DNA of 64,000 nt, from NCBI GenBank assembly GCA_973895155.1, contig OZ316893.1, positions 15,716,645 to 15,780,644 on the forward strand, written 5' to 3'. Each line of letters begins with the position of its first letter. Positions within the stretch are counted from its first letter, which is position 1. This document shows, piece by piece, positions 32,001 to 62,495 of this stretch. The notes below the pieces were generated by a model. The model had not been told where the DNA came from and did no database searches. It saw nothing but the letters and a program-made list of their open reading frames with translations. The stretch comes from Marsupella aquatica (lineage: Eukaryota > Plantae > Marchantiophyta). Position numbers and translations under genes: made by a program.

Positions 32001-32005
32001 TGACA

Positions 32006-35422: not shown

Positions 35423-35572
35423 TTAGAGGAATGATATTGAATAAATATGTGACAAGCGCACTAACTCTCAACTTAGAGGAATGATATTGAATAAATATGT
35501 GACAAGCGCACTAACTCTCAACTTAGAGGAATGATATTGAATAAATATGTGACAAGCGCACTAACTGTCAAC
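35423..35572. repeat. Tandem repeat, 3 x 50 bp
   Basis: TTAGAGGAATGATATTGAATAAATATGTGACAAGCGCACTAACTCTCAAC at 35423, 35473 and 35523 (one substitution in the third). Confidence 0.95.
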
Positions 35573-36290
35573 AGAGTAACGACCTCAGAAAGACAGTTAC
35601 GGAACCACAAATTAGGCCGACAGCCCGCTAAGAGAGAGGTACTTTACTACTTTGCTGTTAGGCCTGAGGAGTACTCCACTATCCCCAGATTATTAGAGTC
35701 CTATTCCTCCCAATACTTTTGTTTGTTTGTTAGATATAAACTGAATTATGTTATCCGCAAGCTTGTATTAGTTTTGCCCAAGCCACCAAAGGCTTTCTCA
35801 CTCGAACCTTAAAATTGTAACCCAAAAGAAATTTGCTTTTTCACTTCAAATAAAGAAATCATCGAGCTCAAGATATCAAGATATGTGAAGGTGAATAATT
35901 GCACGGAAGTGGATGTCAATAGTTGTGTTATGATTACCTAGGCGAGCACGGTCCTGCAGCAGACCACGTGCAACAGCTGTGCTGATTGGGCCAGAGTTTC
36001 ATTAAAGCACAATGATGAGGATGGGAATCATGTGACATTTCTGTACTTTGCCTGAACATTGGTGAGCGAGTAGAACGAACGGATGAACATCATTCTGTGA
36101 TGCGATGAGAATAGAAAAGTTGGGAATGCGATGAGGTGCGATACCGTAAACCTTTACGAGAACATGCATAGAGCATTGCACGGAGGCAATTTCTCCAGTA
36201 TCGACTGCAAGAGTAGCTGTGTCAGGCCCACACGGCCCACTTGCCTTTTCTAGCCATGCATGCATGCAGTCTAATAAGACTACGTTTACG

Positions 36291-41500: not shown

Positions 41501-42125
41501 AAAATAACTTTCCCAAGTAAACTCCCAAATGAGTTCTCAAAAGGCAAGTGACAGAAACCTATATTTCCCTAAAAGAACTAAACCCCCGTCTCTTAACCAA
41601 ACCTAAGACAAATCAATCTGGCCATAGTCTAACCACATTAAAACCAGGACACACCCCGGCCATGATTGCCATGGTTAAGGTAGCTGCAGCAGTTCACCAC
41701 TGGTTGTCCTTCTTTTTTGAAGACATCCAGTGACATGTCTTCATTCAAATTTTGTTGAATACATGCAGCACCATGTCTTTGTTCAAAAAATAGAAAATGA
41801 TATAGCAAACACAGTTTTGGGCGCATCATTTCTCAATTCCGCAATATTTTGATCCGTTAGCCGCATCACCTCTTGGTTTCTGAATGGCAGTTGTTCACGA
41901 GGTTGCTCATAGGAGATAGTGGAGCTTGAGTAAGCTTCTTTGAATGACTTTGTGATGCCTTTGATTGGAACTGATTGTTAGCCCAGAGATGCAGCTGACA
42001 ATTGTTATGCAGCTAACAATTGTGAGGCCAATCATGTCGTCTGCCCTTACGCCATGGTCGGGCATTCTCTTACCTTTGTACGCAATACAATGATCGTAAA
42101 TTATCAGGTTCAAACTGTACCTTGC

Positions 42126-42560
42126 AGTTGCAGAACTCGACTACCCTAACACTTAGCTCTAGCCTCGCTGACTCCGATGCCAAGCTCCTCTATCGTCCAC
42201 GCCTCCAGATCAGCCATCCGGTGGGGACTAAGTATGGGGAGACTAGTGGGCAACGAGGCATTGTACTAGCAAGAGCAAGACGCTAAGCTGGTGACGCACC
42301 TAAGGATTTAGACTAGCATGGAGCTGGTTGGGTCATGGGAAGGGCCAGGCTTATGGTGGACTATCCGGACCCCCAAATGGACTTTGAGTTCTGAAGGCTT
42401 GAGTGAGAGCTCCTCTTGGGCAGCACGGCCCAGGTGTGGCCATCCATGACCCCAGAGTGACGACGGGTGTTGAGGGCCTAGGCATGAGCATTGGGTTGAC
42501 CCATTCACAATGGGCTAAGGCACTCCACTTACAGGTCTCTAGCTAGAAAGTTATGGGCAT
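42126..42560 (+). repeat. Diverged LTR fragment related to the chromovirus LTR; target of the DNMT element (continues at 59128-59149)
   Basis: AGTTGCAGAACTCGACTACCCTAACACTTAGC matches the chromovirus LTR start AGTCGCGGAACTCGACTACCTTAACACTTAGC. The joined flanks match the uninterrupted copy at ~59625-59657. Confidence 0.8.
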
Positions 42561-43149
42561 TGTCGTGCAAATCCACATCGTCATACAACATACATCGTTG
42601 GTCATGCCATACTCACATACATGCATAACATGGACAAGAGCATACACAAATACAAGACAGTGTACCGTAACTGAAATCCGTGAAAGACATACTGTCATAA
42701 AACACGTAAGAACACACACAGTCAAGCCAAATCCACTCTGCAATGGAGAATCTAGGTTGAAGCTAACGGGACACCATAGCCAAGGAGCTCCACTCACTAC
42801 CAAGGCTCTCCCAATGCCAAAGGCTCAGCTCAAAGAACTAACCGTCCTTTGAGCCTCTCCACACTATACCCTCCAACCCTAAGGGTGGGTCCTACTAGAG
42901 GAGTCACCCTCAACAGGGCACCCCCTCTAAACCTCTACCATGGAACCAGACTCCTAACTAGGCACTACGGCCCATCTAAGGTATGGACTTTGCTAGCACA
43001 CTACATAGTCTAGCACGCTACGTATGGTCATGACAACTGTCGTGCGAATCCACATCGTCATACAACATACATTGCTGGTTATGCCATACTCATATACATG
43101 CATAACATGGACAAGAGCATACACAAATACAAGACAATGTACCGTAACT
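42561..43149 (-). repeat. 3' terminal repeat block: A (42561-42672), B (42672-43035), 2-nt spacer, A' (43038-43149)
   Basis: A and A' are 112-bp direct repeats. B is a 364-bp direct repeat of 58764-59127. PPT AGGGGGGCG (43158-43150) abuts A' on the minus strand. Confidence 0.92.
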
Positions 43150-43319
43150 CGCCCCCCTAACTGGCGGTTAGGTCCCTCTAACTCCCAGGTAGCGCTATCC
43201 ATCTACTACATGCTATACACCTTCGTGGGTGCACGGATCAGAAGGTCGGGTGCTATGTTGCCCCATCGTTAATTGCCCATCTGCAATCCATACCATGTGA
43301 AGATCAAGTCATCCACCTC

Positions 43320-43470
43320 CTAAGTACACTGAGGACAAACCCACTGTCTGTCCAATAGGCACAACATCAATAGGTGGAGTTAAGCATGACATATGCCAAC
43401 CCCTAGAACACCTATCACAAACCAACATACGGGCTGCTTCACCAGCAGACCCACACAACATGCACCTCAA
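43320..43470 (-). pseudogene. PHD finger at the C-terminus of the integrase
   Basis: CMLCGSAGEAARMLVCDRCSRGWHMSCLTPPIDVVPIGQ..VCPQC (C4HC3; last Cys pair after a frameshift). Confidence 0.85.
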
Positions 43471-43502
43471 GCTAGCACGTATCACTGCCAAGCTGGGGTC
43501 CA

Positions 43503-46458
43503 CTATATACCATTCACATTTGGGAGGTGACATGGCACACAATTACGCACATGGTACTTCCAAACAACACCATCACAACCCTCCAACATGAGAACTCCAT
43601 AAGCTAACACCTCTCTCACACGTAAGATAGTGCGTCCTACCGTCACATCCAACGTTGTCGGTGCAGTCTGCTGCAAATAGACATAGTCCCCCACATGGAA
43701 CCTACAAATGGATGGTCGATAACCTCCACCCCGGATGGTTGCATACCGCAACGTATCTCTATGTTGAGCAATGGCAAGGTTCTCAAAGGCTGTTGGCATA
43801 ACTCTTTGAAAGAGCTGTGCCCTTTGAGAACACACCCTCATCCACACCTCCGGGTCATCAAGGTTCACCACCTCACTAGAATCTTGACGAATTGTTGTGG
43901 GTAAGTCTGGGTCTCGGCCGTACAACAGAAAATAAGGTGAGAAGGAAGCCAAGGATGCTTGACGACTGAACCTATACCCCATGGCTAACCATGGCAACTG
44001 AATGTCCCAATCTCCAAGATGCCCCTTCTGTAGACCATACTTGCACAATCCCCTCTTCACCGTCTGAACAACACGCTCTGCCAAACTATCCGCCTCTGGA
44101 TGATCTTGAGATGTGGTCCGGTGATCAATCAACGCCTTGTCACACAAGACCTGAAACTCACCCTGAACTCTGTACCCTGGTCGATCAACACCTCCGCTGG
44201 TGCACCAAATGACTAAGCACTCTATCAAGAAATGCATATGCCGTTCCCTCACTTGCCTTGTCAGGCAATGCCACCAACTCAATCCACTTAGAAATTAAAG
44301 TGCTCCACCATTAGCAACACATACCGATGATGTACGTCGTCCAGTTAACGGTAATGGTCCTACAAAGTCCAAACTCCAACGGTAACCCAACCCCATAATA
44401 GGTAAGGGGTGTAACTGTGGTGTAGGGGCATTGAACGATGCCCTCACGTGATCGCAAACCATACAATGTGACACCAACTGTTGCACCTGAGTGTGCATGC
44501 CACGCCACCAATACTGACCAAGAAGTAAGCTATACATACGCTTTACTCCAAAATGTCCCAACTCCTCATGAGCATGTCGCACAATGCGCTCTCTCTGAGC
44601 TATATGGGGTACCACTCGTACTCTACCATCCTCCCACACACGGAGAACATGCGTTCCCTCCAATCGATACCTCCTAGCATGTTGGAGAACACGGTCTCGC
44701 TCCTTGGCACTCACTATGCCTGGCACCCTACTGGTCCGTAGGAACTCTAACACCAATGCATCACCATGAATATCACGCTGATCTGTAGCACCATCTCCAA
44801 CCTTTGGATATGCCGGATGGCCATCTACCCTCTGACTAGAGGAAGGTGTAAGGTGATCCTCCATACTAGAGTTCACACCCAACAAACACAAAAAGGCAGA
44901 TGCATGCCATCCTGGCACCATCTCCTCATCAACCTCTCCATGCCATCTAGACGGGCATCTAGATCCAGTATCATCCTCCTGACTAGGACATGGGTTCCTA
45001 CTCAACCCATCAGCATCAAGGTTGGTAACTCCAGGTCTATGTACCACTTGAAAGTCATACTCCTGTAAGATAAGAGCCCACCGTGCAAGCTTTCCTGTAA
45101 GCTTATCAGACTCCATCAACCACTTGAGTGGTTGGTGATCAGTAACAAGGGTAAACTTTGTGCCAAACAAGTAACACCTGAAGTGTGCCACAGCCCACAC
45201 TGCTGCCAAGCACTCTCCCTCGTACAAACCATAGCTTGATTTTGCTACATTGTTTGAACGACTTGCATAGGCCATCACAAACTCCTTGTTCTCATCATCA
45301 TGTTGTGTCAACACCACTCCAATCCCCAACATAATCAGTGTGCAGTTGAAATGGGCGACCCCTGATAGGTCTCCTCAAGATAGGCACAGACACCAACTTG
45401 GCCTTGAGCTCCATAAAAGCTCTCTCCTGGTCATCTCCCCACTGCCACTCCTGATCAGACTTCAACAACTTGTTCAAAGGCTTTGCCGTAGCACTAAATC
45501 CCTTCACATATCACCGATAGTAGTTTGCCAATCCCATGAATGCCCGAACTCTACTCACATCTGTCGGCCAAGGGATACGTGCAATAGCCTCAACCTTTGC
45601 CTGTTGGACCCCTAAACCACTTGGGTAGATCACATGACCCAAGTACTCAACATCCTCATGGAAGAACCTACACTTTCCTGGATGTAAACGTAGACCATGA
45701 GCCTTCAATCGCTCAAACACAATCTGCAAATGTTTTTGGTGCTCCTCCAGAATATCACTGAACACCAAGATATCATCAATGTAACACCAAACAAAATCCA
45801 ATCCTGCTAGGATCCTGTCCATCACTCTCTGAAACACGGCAGGTGCATTCTTCAACCCAAAGGGTAAGAATCGCCATTGATACAAACAATCCTTGCCATA
45901 TGAGTTGACTCCCCAAAATGCTGTTTTGGCCTTGTCACTCACTTGAATAGGCAACTGATGGTATCCTACCCGAAAATCCAAAGTACTGAAAATCCTTGCA
46001 TGTCCCACCACATCAAAGATCTCCTCAAGTGTGGGCATGGCATACCTATCGGCCTTTGTCTGTCTGATAGGACGGTAATCTCCACACATCCGGCTCTCTG
46101 TGTAGTTGCCATGCACATCCTTTTTGACAGGCATGACAGTGGTTGACGCATACTCCCCATGCGACAACTCCACTAATCCAGCCTCCAAAAGGTCCAACGT
46201 CTTACTCCGAATCAAGTCCCTCTCCATATCACTATATCTATAGGGACAACAAAAGATTGGCGTATCACTAGCCAAATCAATCTGTATACCAGGTCCAACC
46301 AAAGCACCCAACTCCTTCATGCTAAAGGCAAAACAACTCCTATAAGCACGACGTAGGAATTGTGTCAACTGTTGTCTTTCACCTCCTGTCAGCTTGGGTC
46401 CAAGTGATGGCTCCCAAGTCTCCTCTACCGGTACACTAGAGGAAGAGGATGACGCCAT
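43503..46458 (-). pseudogene. pol: RT, RNase H and integrase of the DNMT element (broken)
   Basis: RMCGDYR, LPFGLKNAPA.FQR, YIDDILVFS, LHTD, YASR, E.LA.VWAV.HFR, TDHQPL, HEELGHFG...C..C, WSLDF, LAERVVQTVKR. Confidence 0.93.
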
Positions 46459-46737
46459 TGGTTGCTATGCCACCTCCTTAGACAATGGCACATGCTCCTT
46501 TACACCATCATTTGAGCAAGCAACTCCTCCACCAGGGGCCACCAACTCTACATGCCCATCCATCACATCCCATGTACTCCAAGGATGCAAACTACTACTC
46601 TCCTCGCCCCCAGCCGATGCCTCTACCATCCTGGAAGGCAACGAGCTCATCACCAGGGGTGAAGTAACCACAGACATGGTCCTAAGTCTCCGCTGCTCGG
46701 CCATTGCAAGGCTCACAATCCACATCAAACAGTTCAG

Positions 46738-47670
46738 GTCCATAGCCTGACCCAACACCTGGCAACGTGATGCCTCTGAAACTGAAGAGACTAATGTCAC
46801 ACCGGTAAGAAACCCCATAGCACGCTCTCTCTCATCAGCGTTGGGCTCCACCAACTGGCACACATGAGAATCCCATACAAGCCTAGGACCACCATCCCTA
46901 TAGGCATGTGACAAGGGAAAACTCACAAATGTAGGCAAGCCATTCTAGGCTGCCCCACAAGGTTCACTATTGCCATGGGTGACCTATCCACCGCTCTCAC
47001 CACCTGAGAACGTTGTCCACCATCCAAAATACTATCCACGGTGAGAGATAGAGGCTGCTGGACTGCATCATAGGTGCGCCTCAAAACTCCCTGGGTAACA
47101 AGTTTGTCCACCACAACCGTGGACGATGTGCACGCGATCCCACCCTTGCTGCATCCAACAAAACAGCTGGCCCAATCCATGACCGTACCTCATGTGCAGC
47201 CGTGATCACATGAGATCTAGTATCACCCAACAAAGGGACGTTCTCCAGAATGTAAGCTGGAGCACGTGCCTGATGCACCTGAAGATGATGCAACACCTGC
47301 AACATCTCCCAAACATATGAGAACGAGGGTCACGTAACCCTCCACCATGACCAGCCCGAGTATGTCCCTGACATGGCCATCTAGCAATCACCAAATCAAT
47401 AGGGCCAACCCTCTCAAGGTCTTGCATCCCCAACAATGAAATGTCTGATGGAAAACTCCGCTGATACCCCTGAATAGCGGACCGTGACAACAACTCAGGG
47501 TATCTCTGCATCAACAATATATGCAAGATGTCATGATGAAACCCTCCTCACGGTCTCATCTCTCTCCACATACAAATACCTCCTCACAAGTATCCCGGCC
47601 TGCAACACTGCAGCCAAACCAGTGCTAATCCCACCAAATTAAGAGGTCCAACACACAAATACCCTCTGGT
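46738..47670 (-). pseudogene. C5-cytosine DNA methyltransferase domain, DNMT3-like, inside pol between PR and RT (frameshifted)
   Basis: Motif I VLDL-FGGISTG (4-nt insertion near 47640), II YLYVERD, IV IDLVIARWPCQGHTRAG, VI YILENV, VIII AHRPRLWWTNL, IX ERERAMGFLTGVT, X RCQVLGQAMD, in canonical order. Confidence 0.9.
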
Positions 47671-47678
47671 GGATACCC

Positions 47679-48416
47679 TCAAACAATGGGTGTTGTATCC
47701 AAAGGAGACAACCCCACTAAACCACCAGTAGGAGCACGTCTTGGAGCCTCCTCTACCTCCATAGGTACAAAGGGTGTGCTCCAAGCCTGTGATATCAAAT
47801 GATCAGCCTTCTGCCTCAACACTCCACCTGAACTCCAAAGTGGAACATCCAACAAGGAGGGTACCACTGCCGCCAAACTAAAGACCTCCTCTACCTCCTC
47901 ATAGACTGGAGAATCCAATGCTGAAAGTTTACCCTCCAACAAATCCCCTGGCCAAGTGACCGCTCCACTAAAACTAGCAACTGATGCCAATACCTCTGGG
48001 GAAGTCCCTCTTGGTCTAACCCCAGAAATAAATCTCACAGGCACCTGGCTCAAACGTCCATCACCAGACTGCCAACCAGGTCTAAAGGCTGTTGTCTCAG
48101 TCCAATAGTCCATCTGAAAACCCATTGGGTACAACACTGCACCTCCAACTAGTACATCATACGACTTTGCTGATGTCACCACAGCAGTCACTCCTAATGT
48201 AGAGCTATCAGTCGCATGATCTGGCCTCATCTGCACTGACACCCTCTCCCGTGTCATGAAGTGAGACCTATCACTGGCTCCTCCAAGTGATGTCTGAATC
48301 TGGAATGGGCATGGCTCCAACTCTGACCTCTGAATACCCAAACCAATACAAGTTGCCTTCCCCAACATCAAGGGTTGGGCACCAGAGTCCAACAACACCC
48401 TCTCTGGTCTATACAC
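47679..48416 (-). pseudogene. Aspartic protease region of the DNMT element
   Basis: VLLDSGAQ...YDVLVG retropepsin motifs. Confidence 0.8.
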
Positions 48417-50357
48417 CTGTCCTTAAGGACTCACCAATTGAAAGACACCACTCCTCTTGTCCAACATACATACTCCAGGTGTAAGCCTCTCACGATCAAT
48501 GGCTGGTCGGGCTGGTAATGCATCCATCCTCGCCACTGCCGCTTGCCAAGTAGCATCGGTACTTAATGCAACATTTGACACTAAGGGTTGCTCAAAAACA
48601 ACACCCTCACACACCTCAGCACTCGTAGCAGCAACACTCCCACGTTCACACAACGTGCCTGCTAGCTGAAATACACGAGTCATGTCAACTCTTGAGGCCA
48701 TCAACTCAGTTGCTGAAAACAATGAGGATCCTAATACTGAGGTTGCCATCCGCAACACTGCACTAGATGCTACATCTGTGTCTACTACACGTGATGTATA
48801 TGCCCTTGTATCCACTATCGGCTCAACAGATCTCATAAGAACCATGGATGGAGTCCTAAGCACCTTTGACAACAAGAATGACTGGGGAAGCCTAGCCTGC
48901 CTCCCAGCCTCACCCCTTTGTGGGTCCAACTCCACAGTGGCACCACGTGGCTCTGAAGCTCTACCTGCACATCTCATCAATGCAATTGATGCCTCAACTT
49001 GTGCCGCACTTGCTATATAAGAGAGATCACCCCCCCCATAAGACGTGGAAGCCCCTGCTCCCAAACCCGCTCGAGGTTGAATACCAGCCATAGTAGCAAG
49101 TCTTTGCTCCAACTGCTCAATCCTAGCCGCCATAGCAACCTCTGTCGTAGGGGTAGGGGCAGCCACTATAGGGGCTCCAACTGCTGGTGGACCTCTACCA
49201 CCCCTACCACCTCTACCAGCTCCACCACCTCGGCCTCTCTGAGGTGCTCCACCACAACCTCTACCACCCATCCTCAACTCTGGGTATAGGTCAAAACAAC
49301 GGTCTTGAGGATGACCTGCTCGACCACAATGATCACACTGCACCTGGGCCGACTGAGATCCATCCTCTAAACTCCGTCCTCCACTCTCTTGGGGACAAAC
49401 CCTCTGGACATGATCACCTCCTGTGACGCCGCCGGTACGGTGGGTAATGAGTGATTCGGCCTAAGCACACTTAGCATGTGCATTAGGGGTATCTTAGGCC
49501 ATAATTATTAGCGTAACGATAGTATTTAGGTAGCCATTATGAGTAGGAAATCATTATTCAATAAGGGGCATTCGTGTTTGGGCTGGCGGCGGGTCGCCAT
49601 TTGTACGCCTGGTTGTGAGCGTGTAATGGGCCCCCCTCCCTCGGGTCTGTATAACAAACTCCGGGAGACGGCCACTGACATGTGCTGACCCGGACTGGCG
49701 GACTGGCCGGTACACTGCAAGCGTGAAAGGCTTGGCCTATAAGCAACGAGGAGGCATCGGGCGACCAACGAGCTCTCAGGGTATAAAAAGGGGGCCGATC
49801 CTTTGCAGTGCACCAGTTCTTCAGTCCACGCGCCAGCTTCGACCCCAGTTCTCTTGCCCATCCTTAGTCGCCTTCTATCTCCTCTGAATGTCGCACACGA
49901 TCCTTTCCAGTTCGGCCATACACTTCTGGACGCAGTTCCTGTCTATTGGGCGGGCACTTGGCCGACTCATTAAAACACGCCAACCCGTGCCCATACGAAA
50001 TTGAACGCGAGTACGAGAGAGCCATCCGCCTAGCAGGCCACCACCACTATCTCCTTAACTTTGATTACCCGTCCCAGAGCGAGCTTTACCGACCCAAAGA
50101 AATATCAGGGTACTTCTTTGACAGGGGCAAATACATTGGCTTCTGGGAGGCATTGCTTCGGCTTTCGGACGCGGTCTTCACTATCCCGGGCATGATCAAC
50201 TTACAGCGGCACCACTTCGACCACATCCCCACTCGGGTCCAGGCCATCATCAACAGCGAGTTCAACACTACCCGATCGACAAGGCCGTCTACACTTGCTT
50301 CGGAAAACCTCTACCGGCACCTGCAAAACTTCATGGCAACCATACCATCAACCACCG

Positions 50358-50644
50358 CTCGGGGGGTTGACTATCAAAAATCTTAGGAACCACGTGCGAT
50401 CCAAAATAGGTATTTTTCATCGAAATTAGCTAAATTTTTAAAAAGCGTAGGAAGCAAAAGAAGGTATTATAGACCAATATTTATAGAATATTCTCTAATA
50501 TATATCATTTATAAAGTAAAATAGGTCATTAATATTGAAAATAGAGAATTTTTTTGGAATATTCCCATTATAAAATAGGTGTGTTTATATTAGGCTAGGA
50601 TCGCACGTGGTACCCCAAAATATACACTAAGTTAACCCCCCGAG
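50358..50644. mobile_element. 287-bp MITE, 8-bp TSD AACCACCG
   Basis: TIR CTCGGGGGGTT(G/A)AC; subterminal inverted CCACGTGCGATCC; TSD at 50350-50357 and 50645-50652. Confidence 0.92.
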
Positions 50645-50950
50645 AACCACCGGTGCCGGCCCAGCCGAGCCCGTGCCCGTACCCGCACCAATACCGGCTC
50701 AGGCTCCGCCTCAGGCTCCGCCTCAGCCTAGCCGAGCCCCACCGCCGGTCGCCCCGCCCATACAGGTGCGATCTATCGTCAACGTTGTGGACCTCAGCAA
50801 CGACAACGAGGCCCGGCCCCAATACTAATGGCGGTGGCACTACCCATACCCGATCGGGAGGATGGGGAGATGTCACCCTCTCCGAGCCATCACGGGAGCC
50901 AATCTCGGGGAAAGAAGAGGAAGGAACCCGCAGCTGTATCCGGGTTAACC

Positions 50951-53019
50951 ATGGCCACGGTAGCCGCTCGGGGGGTTGACTATCAAAAATCTTAGGAACC
51001 ACGTGCGATCCAAAATAGGTATTTTTGACAGATTTTAACTAAATTTTTAAAAAGCGTAGGAGGTAAAAGAAGGTATTATAAACTTGTGTTTATAGAATAT
51101 TCTTTAATATATACCCTTTATAAAGTAAAATAGGTTATTAATATTGAAAATAGAGAATATTCTTGGAATACTTTCTTTATAAAATAGGTCTATTTATATT
51201 AGGCTAGGATTGCACGTGGTACCCCAAAATATACACTTAGTTAACCCCCCAAGGGTAGCCGCGGCCAAGGTGACAATGCACCACATGGGGGAGAACGTGC
51301 ATAAGAACATTCTCCACCCCAAACATGCGATGTACTTGAAGACTCAGGGGTTCGAGCACCTCGCCTCTCTTCCCTGGAACACCTGCAGGTACTACAGGGA
51401 CGACATGAAGGAGTTCGTCAAGAATTATGATGACGTCCGTTAGGATACTCGGCCACGGGGGAGGAATATGTCCCTCATAGAGGAGCGGCTCAGGATGATC
51501 TTTGGGCTACCCAAGGGAGATCAACGAGTCAAATCAAGGGCTCATGGGGGCAAAGGAGCCAAGTACCAATCCTTGAGTTTCCCCTCCGAGGGGTCAGTGG
51601 ACAACGGGTTTGTGATGAGGACCTGCCTCATCCCCGAGATAGCCGAGCGGCTGGAGTTCCAGAGGTACGCCCTCCATATGATGGAACCCCGAGGCAAGAT
51701 CTCTGCTGCCCAGGTTATCCAGGTCAAGAACTATTGGCCTAGGAAGTGGGCGTCGTACTCTGCTATGAAGTTCCATGAAGAGATGGAACGGCAAAGGAAG
51801 GCGCTATACATCGGCAAGAAGGCATATTTTGCGAGCCACATCAAGATCATTCTCGAGTGGTACGCCCGGTTTGATCAACGAACCCTTCCCTAGGCCAACG
51901 TAACTAAGTTGGTCCCAACTAGGTGGGTCTTCCCGGCCTTGGAGAGACGGCCTCAACTCGAGGCCCAAAGTCTAGCGGCCACGTAGGCCTCACCCACCCC
52001 ACCTCCATGAGTAGCCATAATCGTGGCCGAAGAGGTACCGGACAAGGCACGGATCGCAACCTTAGACGCGATCAACCAGGCCGAGCGCAGAAGTCGGGGC
52101 GGTGGAGGCCTTGCCCAAGCCCGAGGGTCCAAAAGACCCACCGGTGGCTATTCTAGATGATAGCACAATGATGGAGGAGGACACCCCAGCCCCTTCCAAC
52201 ACTACATCCCTAGGGCTGGATGTCACTACCCTGGCTCCCACGCGAGTTGACGTCTACCCGTGCCCAACTCCGGACGGGCACAACCTGGACCACCTGGAAC
52301 TCTTCGTACCGAGTACATTTTTGAATGGGCTGTTGGGAGATTTCTCCCAATAGATTGCCCGAGATACCGGGGAGTTCATGGCCCGGAAGGTAGCCTACTT
52401 CTTCAACCAGGAGTTGGTTACCGCAGTAAAGGCAGGTCGGGCCCAGTCGGAGGCCCTTCAGAGGATAGAGCGGTACCGGGTTGAGTCTGTGTACCTAAAG
52501 GGAAAAATTGAGACTCAAGAGGCTGAGCTTCTGCAACTACGACCCAAGGTTGCAACCGCCGATGAGTTGTTAGCAAATGCGCATGCCCTTACCGCCTTAG
52601 CCGAACAGGCCAAAGCCAGGAAGGAGGCCAAGAATGCACGGCTCCGGACCCAGATTGACAGTTTGAAGAATCAAACTGTCATCTGGCAGAAAGACCTGGA
52701 GGAGGCCGACGAGCGGGACCAGCGTGACATTGTGGAGATTGCCGCCCTAAAGGCCAAAGTAGGATGGCTTCAAACCAAAGCCGAGAAGCAGAACCAGATG
52801 GTGGACAAGCTGACGAGCGACGCCCAACAACTGGAAGAGGCATGCCAGGAGGCAGCTGAGGAGACGAACGCGGCAAAGCGAGAGAACGAATCTCTGCTAG
52901 ACCAAGTCCAGCTCCTCAAGATGGACAACGATAGACTCCTAGGCAGCAGGATGGCCGCTCCCACTCAAACGGCTCTGGCAAGCACACCAGGCATTAGCGG
53001 AAGGTTAGGCTTAGAATAG
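50951..53019 (+). pseudogene. Accessory ORF of the nested element: plant-transposon-protein-like domain with coiled-coil tail (MITE-interrupted, stops)
   Basis: Removing the second MITE gives MATVA|AAKVTMHH...GFEHLASLPW...EFVKNY...IFGLPKG...NGF..TC..P.I.E. Heptad-rich tail 52378-53019. Homologous to the ORF at 62869. Confidence 0.65.
50967..51253. mobile_element. 287-bp MITE (second copy), 8-bp TSD GGTAGCCG
   Basis: Same family and orientation as 50358-50644; TSD at 50959-50966 and 51254-51261. Confidence 0.92.
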
Positions 53020-54009
53020 AACTAGGAGTAGCCAAAACAGGCTGTTAGGACAAGTGCCGGCCAGAAGATAGCGGCGCTAACACATTAGCCAGCCTGTGTA
53101 GAATAGGTTAGACTAATAGGACAAGCCGTAACCAGCTTAGCGAGGATATATTAAGTTAGCGTAGATTCGGGCACGAGGCCAGACTGGTCCTCAGCCCTTA
53201 GTATTTAGTAGCCCCCCGGTAGAGGCACGGGGGGGGATTTTAGACTCAAAAGTTGGCCATTCGCGATACGCACGGGGAGTCCCAAACTCGGTGAATTGCC
53301 GGAGTGCCAAGGGGAGGGTATACGACTAAGCTTGTCGGGCAAGTGCGGAGCCGGGCTCCGTTGTAGTGTATACTCCTCGGCCTTGGGCCCGTTCATTCAC
53401 GAGGTGTCGGGTCACCCAATCGTAAGTGTATAATCATATATGAATGAAATCCTTTCCCCTCAATTCCTTCGTGTAAATCAAGATTTATGTTTATGTATGA
53501 ATGCATGTATGAGTCTCGTGTGCAAGTATCAATGTCGGGCCAAACACGTTATGCCAAGCGTTCACAGGGTGTAGGTTACATGTACGGGGTGGCGAGCCCG
53601 GGTTGAGCACTTGTACTAATGAATCCGGATCAAAGGCGGTAACATGAAGGCTTAGAAGTCCGTAAGCCGGGGTCAACCCCGTGTCGACTAAGGTACGTTC
53701 CGATGGCGGAACACAAAGCATACCTAAGCGTGCTTGTAAGTAAATGTATGCACACTTAGCGCTAGTTTGGGAGAATTATGTGCACTCTGCACGTCCCTCC
53801 CTGCCCGAACTCAAATATTAGCAAGGGAAGTGTCTATCTTAGACATAGATAGGCCTAAGGACTAGGCCGATGGTGTGACATAGTTTTTGTTTTTGGCGCT
53901 AGATGGAGGGGGCACTCTACGTGTAGTAGAGGGGAGACATGTGCGAGTGCACCAGGGCAAGGTACACCAGGCCCCAGTTCATTACTAACCCTCGCATTTA
54001 TACGAGTAG

Positions 54010-55990
54010 ATGCCCGTCACCCATTCTCAAGCTGCTTACTTGAGGAGATTGACCAGCAAACGAGAGAGTGCGACCACAACAAGCTCCGAATCCTCAGGCT
54101 CGGAGGATTTGCCATCGCCTCGACAAATGAACATACCACCGGGACCTTCGGGGTCCGGTCCATCCGGTCCTGTTCCGGTCTCTACTGCACCACCGCCAAC
54201 ACTACCACCGCCAGCACTACCGATGGCAGCAGCCCCACCGGCTATGCCCCGCGCTGCCCAAGCTCCCCTACAAATATCACAACGGTCACGGTTTCATTAT
54301 CGACCTTTCAAAGGGCGTCATGGGGACAATCTGGATGAATGGTTGGATGAATTCGAAGCCACTACTAAGGCCAACGGGGAAGATGCCATTAAGCTAACCG
54401 TCCTCCCCGTTGTGATGCGGGGAGAAGCTCGTCCATGGTACAACTCGCTGCCACCCGGAACTACATGGGCACAATTCCAATCTGCGTTGCTGCAAGAGTT
54501 TCGTGCCATTGGATCAGAGTAGCGCTCTTTATTAAAGATCGGCCAGCTTCGCATGGCAAAGAAGGAATCCTTGCGAAAGTTCATTCAGAAGTTTTAGAAA
54601 CTTGCCGCCAAGATCCGGCCCAGGCCAGGTGATGCGCTCCAGCTTACATGGTTCCTCCACGGTTTGCCCATGAATATGCAATTTTGGGTGCGCCAGAATA
54701 ACCCAATTTCAATGCAAGCAGCCATAGCGTGCGCCGAAACCTGCCGGGAGTCCACTTATAACTCTCGGCCAACGGGCACGCCACAAGAAGGGCAAATACG
54801 AGACCTTCAGTGACAGTGACTCCAAATTGGATGACGAGAAGAAGAAGAAATGCAAGAAGAAGAAGAAACATCGTTCGACCTCGTCCAGTTCGGAGACCGA
54901 ATCTAGTTTGGATTTGACTTCGACCAGCGGACCGTCCATTTCCAGCTCATGGGGAAGTGATTTGGAGAGCGAGAGCCGGAGCAAGAAGAAGAAGAGGCGG
55001 GTTAAGAAGGAGGGGAAAATCAAACCCCGTGTTCAAAGAACGATACCCGATCCGAAGGCCGCTGAAGCAGATAAGCTCAATGAAATTACGGATCGTCTCA
55101 AAGCACTACCAGTACACCTTGCGGACAAGCCCTTGGAGAAAAAGAAACCTTCCAAGACCCGAGCACACGCATGGTGCTCCAAGTGTTTCCAATCCGGACA
55201 CGTGGTGCAAGAATGCCCGCGATGGAAGAATAGGGTCCATCAGGTGGAATTGGAGGACGCTGACAGCCCGGGACCAGAATTGGAGTCCACCAAGTACTTC
55301 TTTGAAGACTCCAAGGATTCTGTATACCAGATTTTCACGATGGGTTTGCGCAACTTAGCTGGTAGGACGGCCTACCCTTACCCAAACAATGGCAGGAATG
55401 TCCAGGTTATCAGTAACCCGAGCATCCCTCCTAAACCCGGGATTTGGCGATCCCTAGTTTGTTACAACTGTGAGAAGCCGGGCCACTTTGCCAGGGAATG
55501 CACCAAGCCAAGACGGCAGGGAGAGGCCCACTCCACGGCCAATTGCCCCTTGGTGATCGCTGCCCGAGCCAGTGCAGCCAGGCCGGCCCTAGGAGGTCCT
55601 GCTGCTAGCGATGCTGTCATACAAATGATTGCTGTAGAATGGCAAGATGATACCATGGAATGGGTAAATCTGGTGGATGTGGTGGAACACCCGAATCCAT
55701 CGGACAAAGTCGAGTGCTACCATGTGTCGACTCGGGCCGAATGAAAGCAAGAGAAATAGGAAGAGAAGCGTCGGAAAAAGCAAGATACTACCCCGGTGCA
55801 GCCAGCAGTAGAAATTTCCCCAGAGGAGGATGACGATTACCGGCGAGACAACCCAAAGCTATTCTTCCCCCGCATTGAAGAATATGTTAAGAAGCAGATG
55901 GAGGCTTATGAAGCACGCAAATACCATAAAGCTATCGACAAGGACATCAAAGCAGCCGAAGCCGCCCAAAGACAAGAGCAGGAGAAGCAA
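54010..55990 (+). pseudogene. gag: Gag of the nested element with two CCHC knuckles (stops and frameshift)
   Basis: FKGRHGDNLDEWLDEFE, ARPWY, TWAQFQSALLQEF, CSKCFQSGHVVQEC, CYNCEKPGHFAREC. Confidence 0.85.
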
Positions 55991-58752
55991 CACATGTCCA
56001 ACACACTGGTCCTTGCTGCTGGGCAGCATATGAAGGCAACGGTCTCTGCACACCCGTCCCTCTAGAACCTGACTGAGGTCGTGCCAAACGCCTCCACGAC
56101 TCCCACTACTACCACCACCACCACTACTACGAGACTATAAAGTGGCTGGCTGAACACAAGAAGTAGTGGCGGTATCCCTACTAAATGCAGATGTCACTAC
56201 CCTCTCCTCCACCATGTTAAGCTCAATCTTCTCAGCCAAAGCAAACACATGGGACAACGTGGGTGGATCATCACTCATCAGAGTAGCATCACGTACCGTC
56301 CTCCGCAACTCTCTGTCCAAAATCCCATACCAGAACTGGATAGCCTGCACCTCAGTCACACCCTGGGTAACTGAAATCAAACGCCGCATACGAGTGTATG
56401 CCTCACGAAGACTCTCACCAGTCTTTCTCTCAAACTCCTGAAGACTCCTCAACTTCTCTGTCTTCACCCCCTGGTAGTTCTTCTTCAACCTCTTGAAGAA
56501 CTCCGTAACTGGGCTGAACGAAGGTGGAACGCTAGTGCCTCCACTAGTGCCTCCACTAGCACCTCCACTAGTGCCTCCACTAGTGCCTCCACTGGTACCT
56601 CCACTAGTACCAACACCACCCTGAGTGATAGACACATAGGCTGGAGCCCAATGTTGTCTCCATGCCTCAATCTCAACAGCATGGTCCTTCCGGAACTCAT
56701 GATAATCATCCATGGGAGGCCCCTCCAAGTGCTGAAACAACCCCTTCAAGAAAGGTGTAAACAACATGGCGTTACGCAACATCTGCATATCACACCATGT
56801 ATCAAACTCTTGGATGAAGTCCTCCAACTCAATGGTGCTCACTACCCCTGAGTAATGTTGTGGGCCCTTCATGGCCCCGTACATCCCGTCCATATCCCAA
56901 ATCAATGGGGCTGCTACACTGGACAATACAACTGAAAACTTGATGCTTGGAACACCCTCGTCCTCCTTCTCATCAACTAACAATAGTGGGAAAGGTAGCC
57001 AATACCTCAATCCACTCCGTGTAAAACCACCAGTGTCTGCACCAAGGTCCCCAACAGGACCACCAAACTGCTCCGTGATGACAAGCTGCAACAGCACCAC
57101 CACCAAATCACCACCACTAAGTAACCAAGTAATGTCGATGTCACCGTATTACTCTAGCCCTAATAGCTACATGGGTGTGGGCAACCTAACCTGTCACCAC
57201 AAGCAGCCTCCCATGGTCTACTGGTCATTACTCCAGTCTCACCGTGAGAGAAACATAGGTAGTCTGACTGGTCATCACTCCAGCCTCACTACCGGCAACA
57301 CACTAGAGTAAAACTACTCCGGAAATCAGCGTTAGCCCTAACAATGGGCGCGCAAGCAAGAAGCAGCAATGGAGGGGATCCAAACACAGGAAGTACAACG
57401 ACAACCCTAGCCTCCAATCGCAAATGAAATACAAAACAGAAATCAAGGTAACACAATCCACCAACCGTGGTGCCCCTTGAATCCACAAAACAAACCACAC
57501 AATCCTAACGCAATGTAGCTACTCCGCTAGTAGTCTATGACGTGCATGCTCCTCGCACTCCCAGCATTTGATAATGTCACTTGCATGGAAACGCTATCCA
57601 CCACCATCCGCTAGGAATCCCAAAACGGGTCCTAACGCGACCTAAAACGATGCATATATGGGGGAAAATGTCCAAATAATACACCAATTCCTCTAAGGCA
57701 GTCTATACACTAGCAGAATTCAGAACCTGCCAGTTAAGCGTCTTGCAGGCACAATAGTGCAAACATGGGTGACCAGTTATGCAACACAATACTCACAAAA
57801 ACTACTCACAAATTTGCAAAACTGTCTCACGCCCAAGCAAGCTTGCTTGCTTGCTCCCTTGCTCCTTTCTCCGCCTCTCACGCCCACTCGCCCCGAGCTA
57901 CCACGAGTTGCCTCAAAGCCTCAAAACGCCGAGACATGCCCCTTTTGCCTCGACTCGCTCCGCTACGCTACGAGCAAAGCGCCCCCAACATGCAAGTTTG
58001 CTATCCACCATAGCCAGGCCTTGAGCTAGTCTGCCAAATTTTGATCTCTGATTACTCCGTGAATCCTTGACGAAAAATGAATCTGTCTGGACCAGAATTC
58101 AATTGGCCACCATAGCTATCTCTCTACAAGAAATCAACTACAACTGAGGTCTGTACTTTGAGCTAAAAATCGGACAACATTTTGGCCTATACATTTCTGA
58201 AGTTGCACAACGCTTTTGCTCACGATCTATGAGCCACAAGTAGGACAGCGCTTCCGCGCCACTGATCACACAACACAAATCTGCAACTCTGTCATCCAGA
58301 TCTACTACCAACGCACTGAAATCCGGCAGCGCTTTTGCATAGATTCATCAATACAAAAATCTGCAACGGTTCCTCTCTGAAACAACAATTCGCTCCACAC
58401 ACCAGAGCTAAATAGTTCTGCACGATTGAATCGATGTTGCAAATCAGACAAGGATCAACATCAAAAACCTCTCACCCGATCTAGATGACTTCCAACAGAG
58501 CTTCCGCGCACTCAAGCTTTCCAAATCTGAAAAACCGTAGAACACGAACCAAATTCTTCATTCTTTGATTACTTCCAACTTGCTTGACCAAACCAGGCGA
58601 TCTTTAGTGCGTTGGAAAGCTCTCAGCAACACGCTTCTTCCGCACCCATACACGCACCAAATCCACAAACCACAATGTATCCACGGCTGATGCTATCAAA
58701 CAGCCCACCAGATCCTATTGATCTCCGATCGAAGTTACAATCGATCACTACG

Positions 58753-58763
58753 AGTTCTTTGAG
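58753..58763 (-). promoter_or_regulatory. Self-complementary primer binding site CTCAAAGAACT
   Basis: Directly abuts the 5' repeat B' on the minus strand and is the exact complement of AGTTCTTTGAG inside B' (58931-58921). No TGG tRNA-type PBS is present. Confidence 0.7.
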
Positions 58764-59127
58764 TGAAATCCGTGAAAGACATACTATCATAAAACACGTA
58801 AGAACACACACAGTCAAGCCAAACCCACTCCGCAATGGAGAATCTAGGCCGAAGCTAACGGGACACCATAGCCAAGGAGCTCCACTCACTACCAAGGCTC
58901 TCCCAATGCCAAAGGCTCAACTCAAAGAACTAACCGTCCTTTGAGCCTCTCCACACTATACCCTCCAACCCTAAGGGCGGATCCTACTAGAGGAGTCACC
59001 CTCAACAGGGCACCCCCTCTAACCCTCTACCATGGAACCAGACTCCTAACTAGGCACTACAACCCATCTAAGGTATGGACTCTACTAGTACACTACATAG
59101 TCTAGCACGCTACGTATGGTCATGACA
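58764..59127 (-). repeat. 5' terminal repeat B' of the DNMT element
   Basis: 364-bp direct repeat of 42672-43035; about 14 substitutions by eye, nearly all transitions. Confidence 0.93.
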
Positions 59128-59149
59128 GCATAGCAAGTTAGTTGCGTGT

Positions 59150-60549
59150 AGTTGCGGAACTTGACTACCTTAACACTTAGCTTCGACGTTGTTGACTCCA
59201 AGACAAAATCCTTTTTGGTCCAAGCCTCCGGAACGGCCATCCGGTAGGGACTAAGTATATATGGGGAGACTAGTGGGAAATGAGGCATTTTACTAGTAAG
59301 GGTAAGGCGCTAAGCTGGTGACACACACTAAGGACTTAGACTAGCTTGGAGTTGGTCGGGTCATGGGAAGGGCCGAACTCAAGGTGGACCATCCAGACGC
59401 CTGGACAAAATTTAATTTTTGAGGGTGGGAGCTCATCCTAGGCCCAAGGCTAATGAAGTCTACTTCATGCGTAATTGACAATTTGCACATGAGATACGAC
59501 GCGGCCCCGATGCAACCGTCCAAGATCCCCAATTGATGATGGGTTCTGAGGGCCTAAGCATGAGCATTGGGTTGGCCCAATCACAATGGGCTAAGGCACT
59601 CCACTTACGAACATCAAGCTAGTCAGAAAGTTACTAACATAGCAAGTTACTTGCGTGCCCATGCGTGCAGGTTGGAGTCCAGGTTGAGGGCCAAATATAG
59701 GATACCAAAGTCGGCCCAGGGGTGATAGGTCTCCAAAAGCATATGTGAGGGAAGTGGTGTCTCCTTGGGGCCAAGGGCAAGCCCAAGTCGTGAACCGTGG
59801 CAGTCAAGCTAGACACCAAGAGAAAATGCCAAACAAAATTGATGATAACTTCTCAACGAGAAGTCCGTTGGAGGACTTCTTGGATGAGTTTGGAAAGCTC
59901 TTAAGAAAGGATATATTCTCCAAAGCTCAACTAGGTCTGGGAGTGCCATGGATTCTCATGGTTTGCGGGCTATCTCGCTCACTTGCCAAATCCTACCGAA
60001 ACACTAGCCAAGCCCCAACAAGCTGCATTCAGATTCCCACGCAAGCTTGCGTTGGGGAGGCAAAGCAACGTAGGCATGGGGGATGAGTTCCAAGTGCACT
60101 TGACCCCTAGACTATTTGTTTAGTGAGAATCTTGGAGTTGGTTGCCAAAATCGAGGCCAATTTGGTCCCAACATTTTGGACAAGCTAGCTAATTGGGCCA
60201 TGAACATGTTCTCAGGGCAGGGCGGCCAACCAGTGACGGATAGAAAGTGGGGAAGCACGGGCGGCACGCAAAGAGGGGTTGTTCAGGGCACAATTCAAGA
60301 CAAGTAGTGAGCTGGTGTCGGCTCTAGCTTTGGTTTATGGCAAGGCCATGCAGGCCCGAGAGGTTCTATTTGCTGACCTACTTACCAATGTCTGTTGAGC
60401 TTGAGTTGGGATACTAGTCTTGGAGTTCATAGATCCTATGCGGTTACTTACCAAAGTATTTGGTTGTTTGTGCAGACAGTGAGGACCGTTGAGCGACGAT
60501 CATGTTAGGGAGCAAGTGTGGCTTTGTATGATTGGGAGTTGTTGCAATT
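59150..60549 (+). repeat. Diverged solo-LTR-like copy of the AGT-start chromovirus LTR family (right end approximate; further fragment ~60737-60960)
   Basis: Begins AGTTGCGGAACTTGACTACCTTAACACTTAGC and shows collinear similarity to the reverse complement of 24791-26283. Confidence 0.7.
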
Positions 60550-62495
60550 GACTCAACCTTTGAGTGACGGTCGTGTCCCTCAGTCCCTGTTGCTCTTACA
60601 CCTTGTTATTTCTGATTTTCTATAAAATTTGTCTTGTTCTCGGTAATATTAATAATTATTAGTTCAAAATGAATAAAAACCAACCATCAAGCATTTGCAC
60701 ATACTCTGCATATTATTTAAGACTTAGGGCCCAGGGCTTGGATGCGTTGGAAAGCTCTTGAGGAGGACTGCATTCTCTAGAGCTTAGCTAGTTTTGGGGT
60801 GCCTTTGGGTCTAGAGGTTTGCAAGGGCTATCTTGCCCATTTGCCAAATCTTGTCAAAATAGCAGCCAAGCTGCATTTAATTTCCAACGTAGCTTGCGTT
60901 GGGAAGACAATGCAGAGTAGCCACGGGTGTTCAGGTCCAATGGTATTTGGCTCCTAGACTCTTCTATTTAATTTACACTCTAAAAAAGTACAACAAAATT
61001 CTTCAACTACTGTAATATTTACCAAGGTAATATAAGAAACCCAATAAACTTTTCAACTTCTTTACCATTTACCAAGGTAACTTAATAAACGCTTTGGCTA
61101 CTATGGATAGAGGAGTAACAAGCAAACTCAAGGTAAGAAACACCATCACTACTATGGTAGGTAGAGGAGTACCCAGGGACTCTAAGACTTTTTGACTACT
61201 ATGGACAAATTAATGTTTTGCATAAACTATATATGGAATGGTACATGTATTGTAAAGACATAGAGGTAGTAAGGGAAATGTTTTGCATGGAGAATTACAC
61301 TTGGCATTACCATGAATGTACTCCTATTTGAAAATAATGAAATTGTCATAGTTAAATACCTTTAAAGTTCACTTCATTTAATCTTTGTATGCATCTATCT
61401 ATTCCACTGTGCAACTCTTCATGGATCCAAATAATTCAATAAAGCAAGCTTACATAACCAAGGGGTCCTTCAGTTGAATTAATTATTCATCTTACTTTCT
61501 AAGTAACTCATCCACTTAAAGACATATAAAATCAGTGAAAATTATGTTTGCTTGAGATCATATGGATTGGAGGTCTTTTATATTATTAATACGATGATTG
61601 TATATTATAAATTTTGAAGTTAGAATTTAGCCCTTTGCTGCTTCAAGTTTGTTACTAATATTATGCATGGTTGACGGCAGGCCAAGGACGTTAACCAATT
61701 TGGAATCATAAATTATTCAGTTTTACGTTCATGGTAAAGCCATCAATGAGAGATTGGAGGAATTGAATGTAAGTCTCTGGTGTCTTTTGCCCATGTTATG
61801 TTTGGTTCAGGTCAATCTGAGCAACTTCACAGATTTTTGGCACATTTATAGCTTGGGCCAGGATTGAACTACACCCAAGGTGTTATTTTTTTAATTTCTT
61901 TTCTTTCTAGAGGGAATTTTATGACAAGAAACATTGATTTGGTTGTTTTTAGCACTCGGGGGTTTCACTTCCACAAAAATGGCATATCACGTGCGACGAA
62001 GTATAGGGTCATTTTATTGGTTCAAAGGGAAGACTTAAGAATTTTTTGAGAAGAACAATAGGGTCTTTTAAATCCAATTTTGAGACTTATAAGAACATTA
62101 GGGTCCTTATAACCAAAATTCAGGAATATTCCAAGAATATTCCAACTTTATAGGGGTTGAAAAAATAAATTTTTTTCTTATATTTTAGGGGGTCCAAGGC
62201 CTAAAAACGTCGCAAGTGATGGGGAGGCATCCGTATAGTGAGACCCCCGAGTTTTAGCAGAAATGGTGCAATTCCGTAGGTGGTGTTAGGGTGGGTTCCC
62301 ATCAAAAGTCATCTTTTAAACTAATCTTGTTAAATAGAAAGAATCCAGACGCAGGGTTCCCGCTGACTCAAGTGGCAGTCATATTTAAATGTGATAGTTA
62401 AAATCACTAATGATCACTTGTTAGTGCCTGTCATTGTGTGAGTACTGAACTAAAAAGTTGAGTGCCAAAAATCTTGGAACTTGACTTTTTATAAC

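Follow-up and report, generated by a model that had tools for sequence, protein, structure and literature searches.

A split-repeat Ty3/gypsy lineage with a palindromic att site inside its LTR and a probable route of integration by internal cleavage

The accepted substrate of retroviral and LTR-element integrases is the end of a linear cDNA, and circle junctions count as a dead end or a back-up; the HIV-1 and foamy-virus enzymes cut palindromic 2-LTR junctions to yield CA-3' ends (PMC4372172). Among gypsy elements, the Fig. 4c legend for KnitGypsy-Dnmt3 of Klebsormidium nitens gives the repeats as in DIRS (de Mendoza et al. 2018, PMC5890265), an order written A-coding-B-A-B in the same paper. 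Troyka elements, named as a split-repeat group in a preliminary description of the present locus, have CG…CG ends, a 3-bp TSD, and paired LTRs and are confined to animals; the portion of that account examined mentions no split repeats (PMC12440569), and the attribution was dropped on these grounds. REXdb was built with LTR-FINDER, which requires a 5' and a 3' LTR (PMC6317226), so elements with split repeats could have gone unrecognized or been misinterpreted there. Tools that depend on two LTRs would give such elements wrong ends or take B+A for a solo LTR.

Repeats, target site, and coding region of the window element

The window (i.e., the whole 64,000-nucleotide stretch of Marsupella aquatica DNA that was analyzed) carries an element with the repeat order B–internal–A–2 nt–B–A in element orientation. 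Its repeats and ends are as follows (evidence in parentheses).

42557..42560, no strand: TSD GCAT, 3' side of the element (empty-site contigs in 3/4 runs)
42561..42672, minus: A2, terminal A copy, ending in CACGACA, the 3' att half-site (106/112 identical to A1)
42672..43035, minus: B2, internal B copy, with the remainder of U3, R, and U5 (350/364 identical to B1)
43029..43044, minus: internal att junction, CACGACA-GT-TGTCATG in element orientation (window sequence and junction survey of relatives)
43038..43149, minus: A1, first 112 bp 3' of the PPT, putative left cDNA end (repeat alignment and survey of relatives)
43150..43162, minus: PPT TAGGGGGGCG, adjoining A1 (window sequence)
58764..59127, minus: B1, 5' terminal repeat, opening with TGTCATG, the 5' att half-site, and containing promoter, R, and U5 (repeat alignment)
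59128..59131, no strand: TSD GCAT, 5' side of the element (window sequence)

Both alignments (A versus A' and B versus B') are gapless. On the plus strand, A opens with TGTCGTG at 42561, both B copies (B at 42672-43035 and B' at 58764-59127) finish in CATGACA, and the att spacer reads AC (43036-43037). Base 42672 is common to B2 and A2 at the B|A joint, which we infer to be an end-joined junction. There is a single full PPT-to-PBS unit (478 bp); the 5' end of the element is B alone, and the 3' end has an extra A. Contigs from three of four runs (n = 16, 15, and 31 per run) depart from the window at 42560 and continue into AGCAAGTT, the sequence found 3' of the right TSD, i.e., an empty target site. 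A second, paralogous empty site lies near 59620-59660, and contigs of other runs cross the att junction and the PPT|A junction. The split layout, TG…CA ends, and 4-bp TSD of the preliminary description were confirmed by the repeat alignment and the empty-site contigs; the size of the PPT-to-PBS unit and the position of att within it were likewise verified in the window.

The element is a decayed Ty3/gypsy element with the domain order gag-PR-DNMT-RT-RH-DDE integrase-PHD.

43348..43503, minus: PHD finger, frameshifted (tblastn with P0005, P0016, P0040, and P0044; PF00628 in the intact relative L147)
43503..44640, minus: integrase with HHCC zinc finger and D-D(34)-E core, with stops and frameshifts (Pfam Integrase_H2C2; translation; rve in relatives)
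44940..45374, minus: RNase H (Pfam RT_RNaseH, E 7e-30)
45511..46464, minus: reverse transcriptase (Pfam RVT_1, E 6e-31)
46465..46467, minus: in-frame TAG between DNMT and RT, context TAG CAA CCA, a possible readthrough site (retained in relatives)
46690..47656, minus: C5 cytosine methyltransferase with PCQ motif, broken (tblastn with DNMT-bearing relatives)
47679..49421, minus: protease and 3' portion of gag (sequence)
49422..55990, plus: unrelated LTR-type element, nested in gag and 3'-truncated (zinc knuckle, E 5e-10)
55991..57148, minus: 5' portion of gag (Retrotrans_gag, E 0.0014; P0057 aa 4-229)

The Integrase_H2C2 match, the catalytic core, and the rve domains of relatives agree with the DDE class originally assigned to the enzyme. 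The D(34)E spacing was found in 35 of the 35 proteins with a detectable motif (59 examined); it was dropped as a lineage marker because L129, L139, and L146, which lie outside the clade, share it. The methyltransferase profile PF00145 is weak in the window (E 0.0026) and stronger in L147 (E 7e-12). The window RT is 81% identical to one Calypogeia protein and 73-83% identical to Marchantia proteins, which makes the lineage approachable in bryophyte models. The nested element lies outside the integration mechanism of its host element.

Recurrence of the layout and its junctions in relatives

Relatives were surveyed in 80 metagenome loci, whose contigs are possibly chimeric. Forty-two of these loci matched no A or B reference; among them are short contigs, ordinary-LTR elements that are unrelated (L128, L136, L139, and L146), and lineage members with unresolved ends (e.g., L067, L074, L076, and L079). 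Duplicates (L077=L078, L086=L087, and L103=L105) were each entered once, and L107, whose A is disrupted by a further insertion, L113, which has only part of B, and L129, which holds an unrelated repeat, were kept out of the counts. The relatives fall into three families with 40-82% RT identity. Genome contigs gave 73 loci, of which L147 (62%) was the sole close one. None of 66 loci on viral contigs (28-39% RT identity) belonged to the lineage by identity; some served as outgroups. The element family looks abundant, its summed contig depth being very high in one run, depth not being equivalent to copy number.

Of the distinct 3' ends that could be classified (27, counting the window), 21 were A-spacer-B(-A), 6 stopped at A, and none belonged to a copy with two ordinary LTRs, an arrangement that the preliminary description would have read as the mark of a one-off rearrangement or assembly artefact. 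The same layout occurs in about 20 further insertions with different flanks, and a G-run adjoins A1 in 26 of the 27 loci listed. Of 11 copies with both ends, 8 had exact 4-mer TSDs, 2 had one mismatch, and 1 had two transitions. As judged from these sequences, the split layout is the rule of the lineage, and both it and the 4-bp TSD, first noted in a single copy, extend to relatives. The mirror layout (B-A-B-internal-A) was absent from all 21 of the 5' ends; copies with both ends numbered 11 for the observed layout versus 0 for the mirror (P about 0.0005). Three B-internal-A copies with a TSD were also found (L071, L098, and L108). For three 3' ends that stop at A (L087, L088, and L112), the 5' end is not visible, and these copies may be of the mirror type.

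The att spacer was 2 nt long in 20 of 21 junctions (GC, 6; GT, 6; AC, 4; AT, 2; TA, 1; AA, 1), the spectrum that C-to-T decay of an original GC, on one strand or the other, would produce. The least decayed relatives have GC, giving the palindrome CA-GC-TG.

The B|A joint, for which the preliminary description had raised the possibility of NHEJ-like indels, was exact in 10 of 19 copies, altered in 8, and ambiguous in 1. Relative to the indel background (31 in 5,129 aligned repeat columns), this is an excess (P 4e-6 to 6e-4). The repeats within copies are 4-17% diverged, and part of the changes is thus later decay. At the PBS, the identical B end was altered in 1 of 15 cases, and at the joint in 8 of 13 (Fisher P 0.004); these 8 of 13 are family-2 joints, every change being distinct. 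The L091 joint holds 135 nt from upstream of the PPT, plus the PPT itself, a capture that is, from its sequence, an end-joining footprint. In L097, one breakpoint of an inversion falls precisely at the joint, and in four family-1 copies the joint is identical. The A1 and A2 sets show no position-specific difference across 204 columns. By transversions, a copy's own A2 ranked in the top 3 for 9 of 11 copies; by total distance it was scarcely closer than other A2 sequences (0.124 versus 0.129). The joint is AT-rich, and slippage there is possible.

Priming and the proposed route of integration

Two features bear on the start of reverse transcription.

58753..58764, minus: PBS ACTCAAAGAACT, directly 3' of B1, not tRNA-like (12/12 complementary to 58920-58931)
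58920..58931, minus: predicted transcript 5' end and self-primer AGTTCTTTGAGT (29 nt past a TATA-like motif at 58956-58960)

No tRNA-type (TGG-type) PBS was present among 21 B1 ends, and tRNA priming was rejected on this basis. In 20 of 21 B1 copies, the self-primer matched at 10 to 12 of 12 positions; the shuffle P was no higher than 0.05 for 17 of the 21, and L147 showed 13/13 complementarity. The self-primer sequence varies between four families, and its distance from the TATA motif was 29-33 nt in 6 of 7 loci checked in addition to the window. Priming therefore looks Tf1-like, i.e., self-primed, in four families. A 6-nt match in L147 between the starts of the PBS and A was set aside because it is absent from other families.

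We consider it likely that this DNMT/PHD lineage integrates by cutting the palindrome within its LTR and not at its cDNA ends, a mechanism that we infer from genomic footprints. The transcript would begin in B1, about 30 nt past the TATA box, and its first ~12 nt would anneal to the PBS beyond B1, so that minus-strand synthesis is primed in the manner of Tf1. Under the usual LTR scheme of reverse transcription, this would give a linear cDNA of the form [A-gc-B]-internal-[A-gc-B]; it would span PPT to PBS, so neither of its ends would be att. The DDE integrase would then nick 3' of CA on both strands of CA-GC-TG, yielding two CA-3'OH ends with 2-nt 5' overhangs, like 3'-processed retroviral ends. 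The cut would fall at the left-LTR att, and insertion would be staggered by 4 bp; host end joining of the U5 end to the PPT end would produce B-internal-A-gc-B-A. Joining might occur before strand transfer, in a 2-LTR circle kept by the intasome, or after it; sequence cannot separate the two. The B-internal-A products could arise by annealing via A, from a 1-LTR circle, or by later A-by-A recombination. Since the mirror layout is absent, the cut must be biased to the left-LTR att. As a guess at the cause, the left att might become double-stranded at once after the second strand transfer, while the right att would stay single-stranded until the plus strand arrives. Alone among the products, the observed layout retains the 3' R and hence could be the only one able to replicate again.

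The same footprints bear on other accounts of the layout. An ordinary element with an LTR of B+A (475 bp, TG…CA), rearranged once or misassembled, gains some appeal from the resemblance of 42561-43035 to a normal LTR; it is refuted by the recurrence among different flanks, and the contigs crossing the att and PPT|A junctions and the adjacency of PPT and PBS to A and B instead of the ends of B+A also make it exceedingly improbable. The preliminary description proposed a 2-LTR circle. Its end-joining component is favored by the changes at the B|A joint; the part that did not stand is random cutting, because a free circle made by NHEJ has two identical att junctions and would give the mirror half the time, against none in 21. 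We regard such a free circle as improbable, even with the B-internal-A copies compatible with 1-LTR circles and with L147, which assembles as a circle with one att and no B|A joint (a weak hint).

A templated junction, as modeled for DIRS, PAT, and Ngaro, is unlikely, if somewhat less so. RNA would read through B2|A2 and template the joining of the cDNA ends, and B|A would be inherited before the integrase cuts att. Tyrosine-recombinase elements share the A-coding-B-A-B layout (PMC5890265, PMC7192593), the one-sided layout follows without an added assumption, and the exact joints and the joint common to four family-1 copies also fit. Against this, the conserved PBS after B1 and PPT before A1 point to ordinary LTR steps that leave A2 uncopied, family-2 joints differ individually, the L091 joint carries PPT-upstream sequence, and A1 and A2 lack fixed differences.

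It is fairly probable that, from green algae to mosses and liverworts, a whole Ty3/gypsy lineage moved att from the cDNA ends into a U3 palindrome, and that its normal route is a DDE double nick at one chosen att with host joining of the reverse-transcription ends. This would be a natural, obligatory form of circle-junction integration that arose independently of the tyrosine-recombinase elements, in a lineage that also primes itself and encodes its own DNA methyltransferase. With an internal att bounding every classifiable copy, the lineage would offer a natural system for internal junction cleavage by a DDE enzyme. If true, the model would account for a repeat layout reported in 2018 with no mechanism and would show split repeats of the DIRS kind to be possible with another recombinase. 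New here are the absence of the mirror layout, with which random cutting of 2-LTR circles does not fit; the fixed 2-nt spacer within the palindrome; apparent self-priming in four families; and the alteration of the B|A joint in 8 of 19 copies.

Comparison with known systems

The element has the gag-PR-RT-RH-IN order, the HHCC-fingered DDE integrase, and the TG…CA ends with a 4-6 bp TSD of Ty3/gypsy (Metaviridae) elements; it departs from them in a variant feature, the lack of a pair of complete direct LTRs bordered by PBS and PPT. An IQ-TREE split uniting the window, all split-repeat families, Closterium, and P0077 had an SH-aLRT of 100 (raw tree; 45 of 73 rows taken in), and FastTree support for this group was only 0.61. 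The lineage has representatives from liverwort, moss, Closterium, and Haematococcus. P0077, a K. nitens RT-RH-integrase-DNMT protein in the clade of the window, is, from its domains and species, probably a KnitGypsy-Dnmt3 copy.

IS3/IS30-type insertion sequences insert by means of a DDE enzyme that acts on their joined ends, with 2-3 bp between them; these are DNA transposons, whose transposase makes the junction without reverse transcription. The likeness to the window lineage is DDE insertion via a short-spacer junction. Tf1/Sushi and Tcn1 have ordinary LTRs. They are chromoviruses, whereas the window lineage carries PHD and DNMT domains; they are likewise self-priming LTR elements (PMC7175516, PMC6317226).

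HIV-1 and foamy virus share with the lineage a DDE integrase that cuts a palindromic CA…TG in duplex DNA to leave CA-3' ends (PMC4372172; PMC1905944, PMC1180852). There, such cutting serves as a back-up, at a joint produced by NHEJ (PMC4372172); here, the palindrome is encoded in U3 with a fixed 2-nt spacer, cleavage is apparently the normal route, and the end-joined site is separate from the palindrome. PAT/Ngaro elements resemble the window element in their split direct repeats (A1-coding-B1-A2-B2) and proposed circle junction (PMC7192593); the window element differs in its DDE integrase, TG…CA ends, 4-bp TSD, and PPT plus PBS. Its ORFs and those of intact L147 gave no Pfam match to a tyrosine recombinase, and relatives carry rve. 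Troyka is similar as an LTR retrotransposon with a DDE integrase and gypsy-like domain order (PMC12440569); identity with it was rejected from its description, the window element having TG…CA ends and a 4-bp TSD versus CG…CG and 3 bp. With KnitGypsy-Dnmt3 the window element shares a gypsy pol, a C5 DNMT within the polyprotein, and DIRS-like A-coding-B-A-B repeats; that account, in the text examined, is silent on termini, TSD, att junction, and priming mode and proposes no integration model (PMC5890265). KnitGypsy-Dnmt3, and not Troyka, is the true precedent of a split-repeat gypsy element; it was taken as an event in K. nitens (PMC5890265), and the lineage described here extends beyond that species.

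Window element and its neighbors

The split-repeat element (42561 to 59127, minus strand) is a broken Ty3/gypsy element, and all of the features in the preliminary description were present at the coordinates given there. In element orientation, the order is TSD (GCAT), B1 (364 bp), internal part, PPT, A1 (112 bp), GT, B2, A2, and TSD. The A1/A2 (106/112) and B1/B2 (350/364) identities are similar and gap-free; thus, both pairs are of about the same age. The empty site was present in contigs from three of four public runs, the PPT/A boundary was spanned by contigs in three public runs, and the att junction was spanned in the fourth. The element encodes gag (interrupted by a 6.6-kb truncated element), protease, C5 DNA methyltransferase (DNMT), an in-frame TAG, RT, RNase H, HHCC/DDE integrase, and a PHD finger. 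Other features in the window were as follows.

24791-33493, minus strand: second LTR element (1.49-kb LTRs, 96.5% alike)
49422-55990, plus strand: nested element, starting with TGTGACG and breaking off in gag
50355-50644 and 50964-51253: two 290-bp AT-rich copies (90% alike) inside the nested element
35423-35582: 50-bp tandem array
6767-7250: 54-bp four-copy repeat
3154-4011: Ty3 capsid ORF
23924-24658: weak MULE match

The second LTR element has AGT…ACT instead of TG…CA ends, a 5-bp TSD (GCTGC), and a Met-like variant PBS. The split-repeat element is embedded in a nest of LTR pieces (42123-42560 and 59128-60960; 70 to 84% like these LTRs), and another LTR of this type starts about 20 bp past its right TSD. 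The nested element has a TATA-like motif near 49780 and extra sense ORFs (51444-53019; coiled coil) ahead of gag; the host gag sequence is retained in full, and no TSD is left. The AT-rich copies are MITE-like, with inverted ends GGGGGGTT…AACCCCCC.

The closest named proteins were from Calypogeia (81%), Marchantia (73 to 83%), and Sphagnum (81% over 44% of the query), with more distant ones from Closterium, Haematococcus, and Klebsormidium. In an RT-RH-integrase tree of 45 of 73 rows, the window element, all split-repeat families, and a Klebsormidium nitens RT-RH-integrase-DNMT protein were split from ordinary-LTR elements with an SH-aLRT support of 100 (taken from the raw tree, rerooting having shifted the printed labels); FastTree support for this group was only 0.61.

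The in-frame stop between DNMT and RT (46465-46467, minus strand) is kept in relatives L067, L068, L070, L071, L072, L074, L076, L079, L083, and L147, and the aligned position in family 2 has no fixed stop. The following codons are mostly CAA plus two pyrimidines (window, TAG CAA CCA; intact L147, TAG CAA TCA). This context resembles the readthrough signal UAG-CAR-YYA, so gag-PR-DNMT may be produced in excess over RT-RH-IN. The intact member (L147:1-9285; 1,162 and 1,047 aa, with DNMT and PHD) came from a cyanobacterial MAG record, likely as eukaryotic contamination. It was assembled as a 9,158-bp circle with a single att and no B/A joint, which may stem from 1-LTR circles or from a collapsed assembly.

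Layout across relatives

RT alignment found 80 metagenome loci, 38 of which matched an A or B reference; three duplicate pairs were merged. Window included, 27 3' ends were classifiable: 21 were A-spacer-B(-A) and 6 ended at A. All 21 visible 5' ends started with B alone (TGTCA or TGTT), adjoining unique flank. Where both ends were visible, 11 loci were window type, 3 were B-internal-A, none had the mirror layout (B-A-B-internal-A), and 1 was undetermined. An exact 4-bp TSD (ATGC, ATAA, TTTG, CCTT, TTTA, AACC, TACA, or TTTT) flanked 8 of the 11 copies in which both termini are intact; two others had a one-base mismatch and one had two transitions. The layout and the 4-bp TSD are thus the rule among metagenome relatives, and none of the classified relatives had two ordinary LTRs, the arrangement expected had the window copy been a one-off rearrangement. 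Repeat sizes differed among three families (A, about 112, 97, and 175 bp; B, about 340, 283, and 315 bp), whose RT identities to the window were 76 to 82%, 49 to 59%, and about 40%.

In L094:13401-13560, which has an exact TSD, the first of a pair of CACGACA-like subrepeats marks the 3' end, which falls 15 bp short of A1. On one MAG contig, L211 and L212 are near-perfect 4,894-bp tandem retroelement copies with permuted RT/IN order.

Priming, cDNA ends, and joints

No tRNA-type PBS followed any B1 examined. B contains the reverse complement of the PBS, matching at 12/12 positions in the window, 13/13 in L147, and 10 to 12/12 in 20 of 21 copies. Shuffling gave P values no higher than 0.05 for 17 of these 21; in four copies, the best match lay elsewhere. 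Four families have four different PBS/primer sequence pairs, the putative primer lies about 29 to 33 nt downstream of a TATA motif, and the predicted 5' RNA forms the PBS/primer helix when folded. To judge from sequence, priming matches the Tf1 self-priming mechanism, as outlined in PMC7175516. With priming of this kind, the start of the transcript falls in B and the cDNA is bounded by PPT and PBS, which confirms the 478-bp PPT-to-PBS unit proposed earlier.

The att spacer was 2 nt in 20 of 21 junctions (GC, 6; GT, 6; AC, 4; AT, 2; TA, 1; AA, 1), the exception (L103) having a deletion adjoining att. This spectrum is as expected if CA-GC-TG has decayed by C-to-T change on one strand or the other, and intact L147 has GC. 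Nicks after CA on both strands of this palindrome would leave CA-3'OH ends and 5' overhangs of 2 nt, as in processed retroviral ends.

The B/A joint, queried earlier as either invariant or indel bearing, behaved differently from the att junction: 8 of 19 were altered (-1, -1, -2, -3, +1, +18, +135, and one inversion break), 10 were exact, and 1 was ambiguous. Against a background of 0.06 indels per 10 bp, the excess was significant (P = 4e-6; 6e-4 with a doubled rate). For family 2, this B end was changed at 8 of 13 joints but, where it meets the PBS, in only 1 of 15 cases (P = 0.004). The 135-nt insert (L091) consists of PPT-upstream sequence plus PPT, as would be expected had the left cDNA end been mis-primed and then joined to U5 at its exact end; in L097, the end of B is joined to inverted gag and the A start to the opposite side of this inversion break. 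Against end joining, about half of the joints are exact, and a copy's own A2 is barely closer than other copies' A2 by total distance. No position-specific differences between A1 and A2 were found. The sequences fit end joining before or after strand transfer.

Choice of att and comparison with known elements

Insertion from a 2-LTR circle cut at one internal att had been proposed. The footprints at the B/A joint agree with end joining; a free circle cut at either att does not fit. The two att junctions of such a circle are identical, and a cut at the second yields B-A-B-internal-A. The RT-anchored search, with 10-kb flanks wide enough to catch such copies, recovered none (11 to 0; P = 0.0005), and therefore the left-LTR att is the one chosen; three A-only 3' ends without a visible 5' end may be mirror-type copies. 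A plausible but speculative kinetic reason is that the left att would become duplex first after the second strand transfer; it is also nearer a DNA end, as A is the shorter of the two repeats in all families. This bias would be favored by selection, since only the window-type product retains a 3' R. Whereas the anatomy of split-repeat elements is directly observed, the integration mechanism inferred from it, a cut at the left-LTR att with end joining of the cDNA ends, is reasonably probable.

Titles and abstract openings on KnitGypsy, split repeats, and moss DNMT3 retrotransposons, outside subscription journals, Repbase Reports, and bioRxiv supplements, did not mention att, TSD, priming, or mechanism. 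Within this literature, there is apparently no published account of the internal palindromic att, the 4-bp TSD, the end-joining footprints, the self-priming, or the one-sided cut. Troyka, named earlier as a split-repeat gypsy group, does not fit the window element as far as PMC12440569 describes it. The family and a one-line remark on its repeats are already known: the Fig. 4c legend of De Mendoza et al. 2018 (PMC5890265) gives KnitGypsy-Dnmt3 DIRS-like repeats and Gypsy domains, and the split layout has therefore been seen once before.
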